Source: Mobula hypostoma (taxonomy: Eukaryota). From it: DNA of 64,000 nucleotides. Below are positions 3,094 through 37,749 of the stretch, piece by piece. Where the stretch lies: contig NC_086097.1 in assembly GCF_963921235.1 (NCBI RefSeq), forward strand, positions 154,320,001 through 154,384,000, written 5' to 3'. Under the pieces are notes generated by a model that saw nothing but the letters and a program-made list of their open reading frames with translations, did not search any database and had not been told where the DNA came from. The first letter of the stretch is position 1, and each line of letters starts with the position of its first letter. A program made the translations under genes and the position numbers.

Positions 3094-3335
3094 TGATGCA
3101 CTATCAACTACTCCAAAAGACAGGAAGTAGAGTAAATACTGAAAGGCTTTTTATTAACAGTAAATGGACCGACATCCATGCTGAGTATCTGTCCTGGACT
3201 GAGGGAGGAGCAGTGACACAATCGCCTTTATTCAGGGGTCTGTGGAAGGAGCCACAGGAGCAGTCAGCAGAGGGGCGTGCCCAGGCATGTCCAGACAGGT
3301 AACCTGGTTACAACCTATATACATGGTTTATCACA
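3094..3335 (-). mobile_element. Solo LTR related to the Gypsy element at 31414-35898
   Basis: TG...CA ends; aligns by eye along its whole length with 31414-31642 (ACTCCAAAAGAC, GGAGCCACAGG, CAGTCAGCAGAGGGG, CCAGACAGGTAACC, TATACATGGTTTA). Confidence 0.9.
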
Positions 3336-30260: not shown

Positions 30261-31642
30261 ATATTCAGTTCTTAGTTTAATGTAGTTAGCTGGCATGGCT
30301 CAGAGTGTACTGTTTAGCTTAGTATGGAGGAACTTATATCAAATAGCAAACCAAAGAAGACCAATGAGTCAAATGTTATTTAAATTTTATAGGATACTGA
30401 TCTGGATGATATTGCCCAAGAAGCCTTTCCACATTGGAAGGTATGAATTATGCTAACCTGATGCATGTTTTCTGCTTGGGACCCCAGCTGCAATATCTTA
30501 TTGCCCATGAGTGCAATGCAACATGTACAGTAGAGCTGGCCATAAGCAACCAAACAAAGAACTTCTGCTCAGGCCTCTAGAAGAATTCAGCTAGATTGTA
30601 GGCTATAGTAGCAGAGCGGGGAGAAATCCTGTTCAGGCAATATGTGCCGAGGTTTGGTCAGTGAAGGATTAGAAATCCTGGAGTCATAATGGAGCACCAG
30701 TAATGGTTGCAGGGGTGAAAATGAGAAATGCATGGGACTCGTGAAGCATCACAGACACCTCTGTTGTCATCTTACATTCTTGATGTACTGTGTACTCAGC
30801 ACTGAGCTGAGCCACGTCCTCAAGAGGCAATTTAAAATTATGTACAGACAGTACTCATCATGAAGTACAGTGGCAGAGAGCTGAGTTTCCACCTGGTATA
30901 CACAATGCATATAAAGTTAATGACATAATGCTATTACATGATCAATATTTTTATAAACCTTATATGCAACAGTTAGGGAAATGATCAGGCTGACATCTGG
31001 GAAACAGGCAGGTCCAGCACAACAGGCCAGGTGTACAAGACTGTCACAGTACAACACTGGGTGTGGTGAGGATGATGCATATATAAGGAGTAGCTTCGAA
31101 TTTTGGTAATGAATTCCAGGGCTGTGAACCAGGTCTTGCAACTCTAGTTTAAATCATAAAGAAGTAATTATACCTCCCATCTTTTGAAAAACCTGCTTCC
31201 ACCCAAGGAGCTGATGCCAAAGTCACAGACTGTGCAGTTGTAGTGACATGGCATGCAAACACACACTGAATACTTCTGGAAGACTTTGTGCACCAGTATG
31301 CTAAAAATAGAGAGGGAATGGGAGCAAACTGATGTTCTAAGGGCCTGATCATACTTAGTGGCCGAACTTTGGTAATATTCTGTGGCATAACACACAAAAG
31401 GAATTGTACTTCCTGAAGCACCTTCAATTACTCCAAAAGACTGAGGTTTGGTAAAATACTGAAAGGCTTTTATTCGCTGTACAATACGACCTCCACAGTG
31501 AGTGTCTGCCCTCGGACTGAGGGGGAGGGGCAAGGCGAACACCTTTATACAGGACTCTGTGGGAGGAGCCACAGGGGCAGTCAGCAGAGGGGTGTGTCCA
31601 GACAGGTAACCCAGTTACAACATATATACATGGTTTACCACA

Positions 31643-31660
31643 TTCACCCCTCCTTTTTTT
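31643..31660 (-). promoter_or_regulatory. Polypurine tract of the Gypsy element
   Basis: AAAAAAAGGAGGGGTGAA directly before the 3' LTR on the minus strand. Confidence 0.9.
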
Positions 31661-31736: not shown

Positions 31737-34700
31737 TCAAGTCCGTCGCCGTGATCTACGTAGCACCAGCGGTGATTGCACCAGCGATGGCGGTTGTGCT
31801 GGCTCCGGCCTGACTTCAGGTGCCAGCACGTTAGGCATCGGTAATCCCTCATGCGTGTGCATCGCGCCCGGTACGGGAGTGTCGTGTGGTGTCTGTATAG
31901 GGTTTGGGGTGCACGGTGTCTCGTAGGTACATACATTGGTGGGTACGGGGTCAATAGTCACCACGGAGTGTTCAGGGTAGGGGCCCGGAGCTCCTGCGGG
32001 CGCCAGGTCGCGGATGGAGATCGTGTCCTCCCGCCCATCAGGTAAAACCACGTAGGCATACTGGGGGTTCGCATGAAGTAAGTGAACCCTCTCGACTATC
32101 GGGGAGTATTTATTGCTCCTCGCATGTTTCCAGAGCAGCACTGGCCCCAGGGACGTCAGCCAAGATGGTAGAGTGGTTCCAATGGTCGATTTTCTGGGAA
32201 AAGAAAAGAGCCGCTCATGAGGGGTGGCATTGGTGGCTGTGCATAACAGGGAGCGGATGGAGTGGAGTGCCTCGGGAAGGACCTCCTGCCAGCGGGAAAC
32301 CGGCAGTCCCTTTGACCTGAGGGCTAAGAGTGTGGCTTTCCACACTGTGCCATTCTCCTTCTCTACCTGTCCATTCCCCCGGGGATTATAGCTCGCGGTC
32401 CTACTGGTTGCAATTCCCCTAGCCAGTAGATATTGGTGCAGCTCGTCACTCATAAACGAGGACCCTCTGTCACTGTGGATATAGCATGGGTATCCGAACA
32501 GAGTGAAGAGCTTGCGCAGGGCTTTTATAACTGACGTGGTAGTGGTGTCGGGGCAGGGGATGGCGAAGGGGAACCGCGAGTACTCGTCAATTATGTTAAG
32601 AAAGTACACATTGCGGTCAGTGGAGGGAAGGGGCCCTTAAAGTCAACACTCAGTTGCTTAAAGGGGCGGGTGGCCTTGATGAGTGGTGCCTTTTCGGGTC
32701 GGTAGAAGTGCGGTTTGCACTCTGCGCAGACTTGGCAGTCCCTGGTCATCATCCTAATCTCCTCAAGGGAGTAAGGCAGGTTCCAGGCTTTCACGAAGTG
32801 GAAAAGCCGGGTGACTCCCAGGTGGCAAAGGTCTACATGTAGGGCGTATAGCCGGTCAATCTGCGCGCTGGCGCATGTTCCCCGGGATAGGGCATCGGAG
32901 GGCTCGTTGAGCTTCCCAGGCCTGTACATGATGTCATAGTTGTAGGTGGAGAGTTCGATTCTCCACCTCAGAATTTTATCATTTTTGATTTTGCTCCGCT
33001 GCTGATTATTAAACATGAATGCGACTGAGCGCTGGTCAGTTAGCAGGGTGAACCTTTTGCCGGCAAGATAGTGCCTCCAGTGCCTTATAGCTTCCACTAT
33101 GGCCTGGGCCTCCTTCTCTACCGCAGAGTGCCGAATTTCAGGGCCTTGAAGAGTACGGGAGAAGAACGCCACTGGTCTTCCTGCCTGGTTGAGGGTAGCG
33201 GCCAGCGCAAAGTCGGAGGCGTCACTCTCTACTTGGAAGGGAATGGCCTCATCCATCGCATGCATTGCTGCTTTGGCAATGTCCCCTTTTATGCGGTTGA
33301 AGGCCGCGTGGGCCTCGGCAGAGAGGGGGAATGTGGTGGACTTGACCAGGGAGCGAGCCTTGTCTGCATAGTTAGAGACCCATTGGGCGTAATATGAAAA
33401 GAAGCCCAGGCACCTTTTGAGGGCTCTGAGGGTATTGGGAAGAGGGAGTTCCAACAAGGGGCGCATACGGTCGGGGTCAGGGCCAATGACTCCATTCTCC
33501 ACGACACACCCAAGGATAGCAAGTCGGGTGGTCCCAAATACACACTTGTCCTTGTTATAGGTGAGGCTGAAAGATTTGGCCGCTTGGAGAAATTTTTGGA
33601 GGTTGTTGTCGTGATCCTGCTGGTCGTGACCGCAGATGGTGATGTTATCCAGATATGGGAACGTGGCCTTCAGTTGGCACTGGTCCACCATCCAGTCCAT
33701 TGCCCTCTGGAAGACAGATACACCATTCGTGACACGAAAGGGGACGCGCAGGAATTGATAATGCCTGCCATCCGCCTCGAAGGCAGTGTAAGGGCGGTCC
33801 TCCCGGCGGATGGGGAGCTGATGGTAAGCAGATTTTAGATCTATGGTCGAGTACACCTTGTACTGTGCTATCTGATTGACCATATCCGCGATGCGGGGTA
33901 GAGGGTACGCGTCGAGCTGCGTGAACCTATTAATGGTCTGGCTATAGTCCACGACCATCCTATTCTTCTCCCCGTTCCGAACAACCACCACCTGCACCCT
34001 CCAAGGACTTGTGCTTGTCTCAATGACCCCCTCCCTGAGCAGCCGCTGCACCTCCGACTTAATGAAAGCTCTGTCCCCCGCGCTGTACCTCCTGCTTTTA
34101 GTTGCCACAAGTTTACAGTCAGGGGTCAGGTTGGCGAACAGCGGTGGGGGAGGGATCCTGAGGGTGGAGAGGCCGCAAGTGGTGTCGGTAGTGTGGCAGT
34201 TGGCATGATGTTGGGTGGGATGCGCGGGTCGGTGTGTGTGTGTGGTCAGTAGCGGGGTACATGACATATCTCTACAAAACAGGGGATTTATGACAGTAAT
34301 TGGCGGGAGGGGCCCATCATACTTCATTGTCACGCTTTTCAGGTGGCTCTGGAAGTCCAACCCCAACAGCACAGGGGCACACAGTTGAGGCAAGACCAGT
34401 AACGTAAAGTCCCAATATTCTGTGCCCTGCACCACTAGTGTCGCTACACAACCCCCCGGATGTCTGTTGTATGCGACCTGGAGGCCATGGTGACCCTCCG
34501 ACTTACCGGCCGTATCATGAGTCCACAATGCTGCACCGTGGCCGGGTGGATAAAACTCTCCGTGCTGCCTGTGTCAAACAGGCAGCTTGTCCTGTGCCCC
34601 TCCACCAGGATGTCCATCATTGACCTTGCGAGCTGGTGGGGAGAGCTTTGGTCGAGGGTCACGGAAGCCAGGGTGGGGTCGCTGTCTTGGTCCGGCGTGG

Positions 34701-35645
34701 TGGGGTGCCCCGTAAGCACCCGTTGGTCGTAGGCGGTGGGAGGTGGCGCCGACCAAGATGGCCGCCCCCATATCTCGCACGTGGTGGTGGCGTGCAGGGA
34801 AGATGGTGGCAGGCAAGATGGCGACCCCCATGTCTCGCACGTGGTGGCAGTGTGCAGGGAAGATGGCAACCCCCACGTCGCGCACGCAGTGCTGCTCGAT
34901 CCCGCTCGCGGTTTTGACTTACAAACCTTGGCGAAGTGGCCTTCTTTCCGCAGCTGGAGCAGGTAGCTTGTCGGGCCGGGCAGCGTTTCCGGGGATGCTT
35001 CTCCAGTCCGCAGAAGTAGCACTTCGCGGATTCACAACTGGCGGCAGCCGAGGTCGATTCGCCGGCAGGTTGCGGGGTCTGCGGCACCCACAAGGCCATC
35101 GGGGGATCGCGTGCCTGGAGAGCCTCGGAGTTATGCAGAGCGGCCTCCAACGTATTAGCCAGCTCCATCGCCGAATTTAGGGTAAGATCGGCTTTTTCCA
35201 GCAGCCGCTGGCGCACGTACACTGACCTGGTCCCCGTGACGAAGGCTTCCCTCACTAGGAGTTCTGCATGCTGCGCCGCCGTCAGCTCCTGGCAATTGCA
35301 GGCCCGCACGAGCGTCCGTAGGGCCTGGACGAACTCAGCACTTGATTTCCCGGGACGTTGTTGCCGTGTTGCTAAACGGTGCCGAGCATAGACGCTGTTT
35401 ATCGGCCGCAGGTATTGCCTTTTGAGTGGGTTCATCGCGCCGTCGTAGTTCGGCTGGTCTCTGATCAGCGAATAGACCCGTGGACTGACCCTGGAGAGTA
35501 GAACTCTGCGCTTCGCTACGGGGTCGGTCGCTTTAATCTCCTCTAGATACGCTTCGAAGCAGGCCGGCCAGAGTTCAAAAGCGTTTCCAGCTTCAGGTGT
35601 TTGTGGATTGAGGTCTAATTTTTCTGGTCTCGGGGCCTGTTCCAT
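31737..35645 (-). pseudogene. gag-pol polyprotein broken by three frameshifts
   Basis: Two CCHC knuckles (CYFCGLEKHPRKRC; CSSCGKK/GHFAKVC), PR LFDTGS, RT YLDN box, RNase H ESDAS...EKEA...TDQ, IN HHCC + VDFKG/HSDRG/QVEKEN; frame breaks near 34940, 34455 and 32630. Confidence 0.95.
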
Positions 35646-35770
35646 GTTTTAAAACGTACAGCGAATAAAATTGAAGCACCTTCAATTACTCCAAAAGACT
35701 GAGGTTTGGTAAAATACTGAAACTCTTATTCGCTGTACAATACGACCTCCACAGTGAGTGTCTGCCCCCG

Positions 35771-35805
35771 GACTGAGGGGGAGGGGCAAGGCAAACACCT
35801 TTATA
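35771..35805 (-). promoter_or_regulatory. LTR core promoter (TATA + Inr)
   Basis: TATAAA at 35805-35800 and CTCAGTC with its A at 35774, 31 nt apart; same motifs in the 3' LTR. Confidence 0.65.
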
Positions 35806-36619
35806 CAGGACTCTGTGGGAGGAGCCACAGGGGCAGTCAGCAGAGGGGTGTGTCCAGACAGGTAACCCAGTTACAACATATATACATGGTTTACCACACT
35901 TCCATACAGAATTCATGCACCATAACATCCTTGGGTGATAACTACAAACTAGGTGAGATTTAACAAATATCATGGTGGCTCTCATGAAGAAGATGATATT
36001 GACAGTACACCTGATTCAAAAATTCGTTAAAGAAATGGATGGGATCTTGGATCTGAGTGAGAATGGAAAAATTATATTGCCTATGTTAAATATATTTAAT
36101 AAATCGTGAGCTTCTTCCTGAAAACTGTTTGTGAATGAAAAATTTCAAATCTTTTCCTTATTCTTGCTTTCTTATATACTTACATTTTAAAACTTTAAAA
36201 TATTTTCTTCAACAGACTTTCAACATTTATAAATGTCAGTATAAAATATATTACAAGTGAATTTTGTAGGAAAAGCAATGTTCTGTAATAATTTATTGGT
36301 ACTGGATGGATCATCGGATGGACATGCTGATCCAACTGAATGGATAAAAAGGCATGAGGTCAACATCATTCTACAGTGCATTAGTCAGTCACCAATGAGG
36401 TACCGACAGAAACTCTGGTTAACTAATTTCAAGGATACTCTATAGGGGAAAATTATTCTGGCAACACATTTTCTTAATCAGTAACTGTGGAAATGAAACT
36501 GGCAAGTCCTATATTGCAGTAATGAACACGTCCAATTACCAGGTACATTGTAAATGTTGAATTCCACTCTTTGTATCAATTTTAACAGTTTCTCTGCCAA
36601 GAACACAATAGCTGGATTA

Positions 36620-36815
36620 ATGGCACACAAGGGAGAATCTGCAGATGCTGGCAATTCAAGCAACACACAAAATGCTGGAGGAACTCAGCAGGCCAGGCAG
36701 AATCTATGGAAAAAAGTACAGTCAACATTTCCGGCTAAGACAGGATAGAAAAGATGAGGAGTACTGTCTGTTTTTCCATTGATGCTGCCAAGCCTGCTGA
36801 GTTCCTTCAGCATTT
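36620..36815. repeat. Penelope-derived inverted repeat (hairpin)
   Basis: CACAAAATGCTGGAGGAACTCAGCAGGCCAGGCAGAATCTATGGAAAAA pairs imperfectly with TTTTTCCATTGATGCTGCCAAGCCTGCTGAGTTCCTTCAGCATTTTGTG. Confidence 0.8.
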
Positions 36816-37749
36816 TGTGAGTGCAGCAAGATTAATGGGCTTAGCTCCAACAAGGAACCCTGGAAGCCAGGAAGAAGGTTACAGTTGCAGAATAAGGACA
36901 GATCTGGTACAAGTGCTGAGCAGTAGCAGATCCTGGTGAAAAACATTATACCACAGGTGTGACTAGGGCTAAAATTACAGAACATGGCTTAGATTGTGTC
37001 CTCTCCCAAATGTGGGGGAATCTTTGGATGATGGTAGAGCCACATATGACAATTCTGATAGCATGTTACCTTGGGGTGCTTACAGGAAGCCTCCTGGGAG
37101 CCTGTTTTCCATGTTGACAACCCATTTAACACACTTGTTAACCTATTTGGGTAATGAAAACTATGACGTGAATATTAGGGTCAATTTGATAGTCCTGTGA
37201 GCCAATAAACACTGCCAGGTTAAACGATATACCAGCTCTTCATTATATAACCTAGGCTAGCATATCAGTTTAGTACTGAGAGAATACAACATTGTGTGAG
37301 GTAGCACATTTCAAAGAGTTATTGTATTTATGTCTCATCAATCTGTTCAAGTGGAATATTATTCAAAGCAAAACTCAGCTGGAATTTCCCAACCTAAATC
37401 AGCAAAAAGTAGTTAACAATTTACCTGTATTTCTATGTGTGTGATCTTTTAATCACTAATAATCAACAAATTGCTACATTTGCCTTCAGAAATATAGCAA
37501 ACGCACGAGAACATCAAACCCATTCAACAGGATCACGGCCATTCTACTCTGGACTCAATTCTCTTCTTTGTCAGTTCCACATATACTTCAATTCTAGATC
37601 TTTGAAATATTTATCTATCTTCATCTTAAATGTCAAAAAATTTGCCCCGACATTAGAAATTTCATGAATTCAAATACATTATCAGAGTCAAAATTGAAGA
37701 AACCTAGACTTGGTTTTCAAAATACCATGTGAATACAAACACCTGTATT

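Follow-up and report, generated by a model that had tools for sequence, protein, structure and literature searches.

Self-complementarity of leader and LTR in a ray Ty3/Gypsy element and its relatives as a candidate basis for tRNA-free priming

How does a Ty3/Gypsy element begin reverse transcription when the place of its primer-binding site is taken by the complement of its own LTR? The question is raised by an element on the minus strand (35898 to 31414) of the window, that is, the whole 64,000-nt stretch of Mobula hypostoma contig NC_086097.1 that was analysed. The element, which is compact and of high copy number, was assigned to the Ty3/Gypsy LTR retrotransposons by its TG..CA LTRs, target duplication and polypurine tract, together with a gag-PR-RT-RNase H-IN domain order; among solved structures, its nearest RT is that of Ty3 (4OL8, E 3.6e-46), and its best gag matches are from rays. 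Its LTRs are three substitutions and one 2-nt indel apart. Because gag, protease, RT-RNase H and integrase are spread over four frames, this copy is broken; other genomic matches have open frames reaching some 1300 codons, which fits a single gag-pol frame. The features are collected in Table 1. An inverted repeat (85%, 60-nt arms, 40 nt apart) occupies window positions 36663-36822, about 800 nt upstream of the element.

Table 1. Positions in the window of the element's features and of a lone LTR of a second subfamily.
Feature	Position	Strand	Remark
Target site duplication, left copy	35899..35903	-	GGAAG, 5 bp
5' LTR	35672..35898	-	227 bp, TG..CA
TATA-like box	35800..35805	-	TATAAA, 67 nt before the motif; predicted start near 35774; function inferred
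Putative self-primer motif, 5' LTR	35724..35738	-	14/15 in the window copy; predicted cut at its 3' end, 35724/35723; role inferred
Loop between motif and primer site	35672..35723	-	
Gap between LTR end and primer site	35671	-	single unpaired base (A)
Primer-binding-site position	35656..35670	-	15-mer complementary to the LTR motif, no TGG
gag frame	34659..35645	-	ATG 26 nt past the LTR; Cys-His knuckle
Aspartic protease frame	34444..35031	-	
RT and RNase H frame	32591..34573	-	YLDN
Integrase core frame	31737..32636	-	no chromodomain or SH3 match
Polypurine tract region	31643..31660	-	ends AA before the 3' LTR
3' LTR	31414..31642	-	229 bp
3' LTR motif	31468..31482	-	15/15 complementary, ends AATAAAA with the AATAAA intact
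Target site duplication, right copy	31409..31413	-	GGAAG
Lone LTR, subfamily B	3094..3335	-	motif 3163-3149, four positions different

A sequence-only reading of the window had described a 5' LTR followed by one A and then by a 15-mer (35670-35656), with no TGG at the site and a gag ATG only 26 nt after the LTR. All of its coordinates proved correct: the ATG lies at 35645, 10 bases past the 15-mer, and no TGG occurs in the 26-nt leader between the LTR end and gag. The complementarity that it reported was likewise recovered, exact against 31482-31468 of the 3' LTR and 14/15 against 35738-35724 of the 5' LTR, where the mismatch gives a G-U pair; the same change destroys AATAAA in the 5' LTR of the window copy. 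By simple arithmetic, the chance of an exact 15-mer complement within a 229-nt LTR is about 229 x 4^-15 = 2e-7. In addition, the 141-nt region was predicted to fold at -41.9 kcal/mol (z -3.53), a value equalled by one of 200 shuffles.

A second copy (L313, G000:C1:155499307-155503960), about 1.14 Mb away and in opposite orientation, was inserted independently and has its own flanks and target duplication. It shares with window positions 35725-34880 a variant present in the 5' LTR only, with a 26-mer found at just these two genomic places and nine rare-allele columns in common over some 850 nt (48 copies compared); both copies have the common form in the 3' LTR. An old ectopic gene conversion is the likely source of this shared variant.

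The pairing recurs within a family that a profile search showed to be large. A genomic search met about 2000 candidates, of which 40 were scored and 30 fetched; within these 30 best matches the 15-mer was exact in 26, the window copy included, and carried one substitution in four, and none had a TGG site. For subfamily B, represented in the window by a lone LTR with a different motif, the complement of the B motif was predicted for full-length relatives before their leaders were checked. An internal region was found at three of 30 subfamily-B loci, each of which carries the sequence complementary to the B motif (exact in one, with one change in two), and was absent downstream in the remaining 27, lone LTRs being abundant. 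The covariation of motif and site proposed as a check by the sequence-only reading was thus borne out, complementarity being kept through compensatory changes between subfamilies A and B. The flanks of the lone B LTR in the window show no matching target duplication, and the same 10 bases come first after two further lone copies, L035 and L037, hinting at repeated insertion into one repeat.

The junction pattern was found in 99 of 150 genomic loci, giving 92 distinct junctions. Watson-Crick pairing holds at each of pairs 1-15 in 80-92 of these, with swaps at pair 8 (GC 68, TA 18), pair 9 (CG 64, TA 16), pair 11 (AT 74, TA 18) and pair 15 (GC 67, TA 17); the counts reflect a single A/B split, so the swaps at these pairs are not independent events. 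Pair 16 is mixed, and pair 17 is kept in only 7/92. The 51 loci without the pattern comprise 27 lone or 3' LTRs, 22 with the same layout, one without a leader and one unrelated. Furthermore, four intermediates (L099, L108, L109 and L116) combine A's motif with B's base at pair 15, and three of them have the B-type upstream box, which suggests that compensation went stepwise. Their mismatch at pair 15 indicates that primer copying would not correct every position. Copies whose motif and site carry private changes together (L090, L094, L105) were considered as signs of templating and set aside, the changes being of CpG type and too few. When the genome was searched twice with protein queries for divergent families, nearly all that came back was subfamily A.

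More distant relatives were sought by an RT alignment search of public contigs, from which 90 loci were fetched (RT 44-66% identical). The gag start could be located in 25 of them, 15 giving only partial gag matches and 50 none. A perfect leader:LTR stem of 11-18 bp was found in 18 of the 25 testable loci by a search that made no assumption about LTR ends, with 0/30 base shuffles as good for any of them, and it begins one base after the terminal CA (CA+1) in 15 of the 18. The other seven divide into five with no stem (L140, L144, L150, L160, L196) and two with an interrupted one. LTR pairs confirmed the LTR ends in L123, L125, L127, L130/131, L154, L169 and L194. Apart from a constant TAA(A) at the 3' end, the motif letters are mostly family-specific: pairing with the own motif averages 12.8 of 13, and cross-family pairing 8.3. 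Full cross-pairing is seen between the close relatives L121 and L123, and a single compensated pair separates L127 from L130. The presence of such stems, with different letters, in 18/25 loci argues that complementarity has been kept across distant families. The relatives search of viral contigs yielded zero loci and then one distant locus. Gypsy-like elements in contigs filed as bacterial MAGs (L201-L206, L208, L209) are probably animal DNA.

Compensated pairing between subfamilies and between distant families, together with the lack of TGG in any member examined, supports the self-priming proposed for this locus; of the observations that the sequence-only reading had named as refuting it, none was made in the material examined. 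We consider it probable that the element and its group prime reverse transcription with a cut piece of their own RNA, in the manner of Tf1. Taking the pairing, its compensation, the one-base spacer and the recurrence in the clade as seen in the sequence, and the cut, the priming next to U5 and the strand transfer as modelled on Tf1, the following course can be proposed. The 5' copy of the motif would fold onto the primer site over a loop of about 54 nt, and the element's RNase H would likely cut at the helix junction, after TAAA(A), leaving a free 3'-OH that lies 1 nt, perhaps 2, from U5 and from which minus-strand DNA would start. Strong-stop DNA would cover only the part of the LTR downstream of the cut, and the strand-transfer overlap would run from the cut site to the poly(A) site; such an overlap would explain why a poly(A) hexamer is found either at the end of the motif or a little way past it. 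By being copied into the plus strand, the primer would hold motif and site to the same match, and the hiding of the 5' AATAAA in the stem could be a side benefit.

The position of the cut may be marked by the fold itself. In folding predictions, the motif:site helix is paired with a mean probability of 0.88 or more in 14/17 elements, and in 13/17 (3.7 expected from dinucleotide shuffles) a second helix opens at +1, directly past the motif; with the elements collapsed to 13 lineages the count is 9, against 2.8 expected (P 1.5e-4). This +1 criterion was fixed after a first look, and a stricter four-pair version gave 9/17. The letters of the second helix vary, L201 having a TGG/CCA stem. In sister copies of the ray element the helix starts at the loop's first base, where the window copy is 2 nt short. 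From these models and by analogy with Tf1, RNase H likely cuts where the second helix begins.

Other explanations of the paired leader were weighed against this self-priming. A host RNA, such as an internal tRNA fragment or another small RNA, might be the primer and the LTR match incidental, as Ty1/copia lineages include elements primed by half-tRNAs (PMC6317226). A comparison of the 15-mer with host tRNAs, suggested by the sequence-only reading, gave a longest common word of 6 nt, in a sample of 30 loci that were all Lys(TTT); with sampling so restricted, the stronger argument is that the site varies by family and always matches the element's own LTR. Moreover, the 15-mer has no Rfam match and no CCA end, and its combination with a T-loop word within 30 nt has zero matches in the genome, so that a host primer appears very improbable. 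Tests of leaders recovered tRNA-type TGG sites in the control elements L205/L209 and L307-L311, the latter from the same genome. Of the fetched tRNA loci, 22/30 lie in a dense tRNA-Lys(TTT) gene array at G000:C90:4.02-4.33 Mb. It is improbable, too, that the motif is provided in trans or by the 3' R copy, through a second packaged RNA or lone-LTR transcripts trimmed to the TAAA(A) end. The perfect complementarity of the 3' LTR motif and the abundance of lone LTRs (27/30 of the subfamily-B matches) would suit such a source, but the cis fold is strongly favoured by the pairing probabilities given above, and cutting the 3' copy would presumably lose the strand-transfer overlap on that RNA.

Hiding the 5' poly(A) signal might also be the main role of the stem, priming being left to something else. 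The observation that the motif spans AATAAA stood for the window element and for 10/18 elements of the clade, but did not extend to the whole of it: in those 10, A[AT]TAAA is part of the motif, a separate canonical hexamer lies downstream in three, a variant lies downstream in two, and three have none. The masking of the signal by the stem, also put forward from the sequence, is possible where the hexamer sits in the stem, and the stem can form at the 5' LTR only; it is not a general reason for the pairing, as in 3/18 elements a canonical hexamer lies outside it. Since the overlap is not clade-wide, masking is at most secondary. As the main function it is quite improbable, given that pairing is kept in the three elements with a canonical hexamer outside the stem and in five motifs with no hexamer or only a downstream variant, that the 3' arm keeps to CA+1 in most stems, and that the 26-nt leader has no other primer site.

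Within self-priming, two geometries differ in where the primer's 5' end would lie. The sequence-only reading had placed the partner at +37 to +51; the arithmetic is right for a start 31 nt past the TATAAA at 35805-35800, a start that is itself only predicted. Its view that an internal cut would depart from Tf1 did not hold, for in Tf1, too, RNase H cuts the RNA, between bases 11 and 12 (PMC7175516). The only possible difference from the Tf1 cut is that about 36 unpaired bases would precede an internal primer. In three ray elements the sole TATA-like word lies 67-71 nt upstream of the motif, with none at 25-35 nt, and this spacing speaks against the primer being the extreme 5' end of the RNA. 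The position of the box is kept in both subfamilies, as TATAAA in A and as AATAAA in B and the intermediates; reading AATAAA in subfamily B, it may not be a TATA box. MLV is said to use an AATAAA-type word as its TATA. In two chromoviruses of the same genome (L303 and L306, the whole of this calibration), 31 nt separate a TATA-like box from the start of the LTR stretch matched by the leader, the spacing expected for a 5'-terminal primer. On this evidence from the sequence, an internal primer in rays, ending a capped 5' fragment of about 50 nt that would pair through its last 15 bases only, appears slightly likelier than a Tf1-like 5'-terminal 15-mer.

Plain Tf1 geometry, with the start at the motif's first base, a primer made of the 5'-terminal 13-18 bases and an upstream box that is not a working TATA, is nevertheless a serious possibility for the ray family, if not the expected one; self-priming is common to both geometries. 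Pairing stops sharply past 15-16 bases, as if copying ran off the 5' end of the primer, and a 50-nt primer would give plus-strand copying no obvious stop at base 15. The subfamily A motif begins T/G, a pyrimidine-purine start, Tf1 itself works by a 5'-terminal primer, and no fixed TATA spacing exists outside rays, where 11/15 elements have no TATA-like word within 125 nt. Against it stand the conserved box spacing in rays, which departs from that of the in-genome chromoviruses, and the motifs of many families, which begin T or C. Among the rows listed from contigs of seven runs of uncertain type, there were no poly(A) ends or start pile-ups. A deep contig that starts about 26 nt past the TATA-like box was not accepted as marking a transcription start, since its loose end is equal to the 31-letter word size. 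A splice-made primer was rejected, as the motif is contiguous in the DNA and the only joint within the LTR came from a single low-depth contig without GT-AG ends. Taken as a whole, the most extended form of the proposal remains tentative and somewhat doubtful: a large, animal-wide Gypsy clade whose self-priming arose independently of Tf1/sushi and works differently, with an internal R primer ending a capped fragment of about 50 nt, a cut at a conserved stacked-helix junction TAAA/RCC, and a fold that keeps the 5' poly(A) signal out of reach in many of the families while setting the strand-transfer overlap.

The placement of the clade bears on how this priming is to be compared with known systems. 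A quick tree of 86 rows put all 24 that were labelled self-complementary into a single group of 83, from which two TGG elements stood apart. A 22-row RT tree, to which two in-genome elements with SH3 and chromo domains and four other in-genome Gypsy elements (three with TGG leaders) were added, recovered the clade at 100/100 on a long branch, and the chromoviruses separately at 100/100, their side consisting of two rows with single partial segments. Holding clade and chromoviruses together gave a p-AU of 0.199; as sisterhood is compatible with the tree, no claim of independent origin is made. A scan of the integrase C-terminus found no chromodomain or SH3 match in the window element and found both in L303 and L306, and PF00385 matched 0/120 of the relatives listed, many of them partial. 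Having no chromodomain, the element was not filed as Tf1/sushi. L303 (3243-8288) and L306 (3221-8317) are sushi-like chromoviruses with SH3 and chromo domains and a leader-LTR match of 7-8 perfect pairs; judging from these leaders, two kinds of self-primers likely coexist in this genome.

For Tf1, self-priming has been proven; in animals it has been tied mainly to chromoviruses. Relatives of the ray element by RT match are named from rays, corals, nematodes, flatworms and arthropods. If the reading is right, a non-chromoviral self-priming clade would make tRNA-free priming much commoner, would bear on whether hairpin or tRNA priming is the earlier state (PMC3601003), and might place such elements beyond the reach of tRNA-fragment silencing. 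The conserved junction points to one specific phosphodiester bond, and the junction helix and TATA calibration make the cut and start sites testable. Leader:LTR pairing could furthermore serve LTR-annotation tools as a rule for families now scored as having no PBS.

Self-primed Gypsy families have entries in Repbase, and prior cataloguing of this family there is quite possible. 'Selfy' is a clade name, for which the literature search found no paper. Cigr-1 elements are about 4 kb long, with short LTRs and one ORF. Cigr-1 and MolGy/PolGy are little-described animal Gypsy clades that may match this one, compared here by description only (PMC6238403, PMC8556966); peptide searches gave no match in the parts covered of the supplementary data of two papers. 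The literature search, whose scope excluded Repbase, GyDB and subscription papers, returned no account of self-priming in this clade, and the Troyka paper and Llorens 2009 gave no relevant passage. Where excerpts of the papers retrieved discuss self-priming, it is placed in Tf1/sushi, Tcn1 and TAR copia elements (PMC3601003, PMC3286476, PMC12440569, PMC4600332, PMC6317226, PMC7175516, PMC10085805, PMC6238403, PMC5341516, PMC2774666, PMC3670739, PMC8556966).

Among described lineages, several invite comparison with the ray element. Its Cys-His gag is presumably Mag-like. The Mag lineage (A, B and C clades) likewise has short LTRs, a 5-bp duplication and compact size, but uses tRNA-Leu, -Ser or -Arg sites (PMC3286476), whereas the window element has no TGG; TGG-leader elements with Mag-type sites fell far outside the clade, in a tree that held no named Mag sequence. 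Outside Tf1/sushi, self-primers have been predicted in the TAR elements (Houba, Osr-1) of Ty1/copia and in moss Tcn1, by a complement of at least 10 bp lying 0-5 bp past the LTR (PMC6317226). The type of evidence is the same as here, and the window element passes their 10-bp test; those elements belong to another superfamily or to a chromovirus lineage and have plant hosts. The closest likeness is to Tf1/Tf2 of S. pombe, Tj1, Tosmo and the Tf1/sushi group, in which the site is complementary to the LTR, no tRNA is used, a cut is needed to free a 3'-OH and helices flank the primer duplex (PMC7175516, PMC10085805, PMC4600332, PMC5341516); the cut and the flanking helix of the ray element are predicted counterparts. 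The ray clade differs from Tf1/sushi in having neither chromodomain nor SH3 domain and in forming an RT clade separate from the in-genome chromoviruses. Its duplex measures 13-18 bp, against 11 in the Tf1/sushi group, and its partner motif lies 24-68 nt from the primer site, against about 225 nt in L303 and L306. In Tf1 the primer cut lies within a three-duplex structure (PMC10085805), the 'pretzel', in which the further pairing involves site-adjacent sequence, whereas the predicted second helix of the ray clade lies within the motif-site loop. Finally, the primer may be internal in this clade, whereas that of Tf1 is the extreme 5' end of the RNA.
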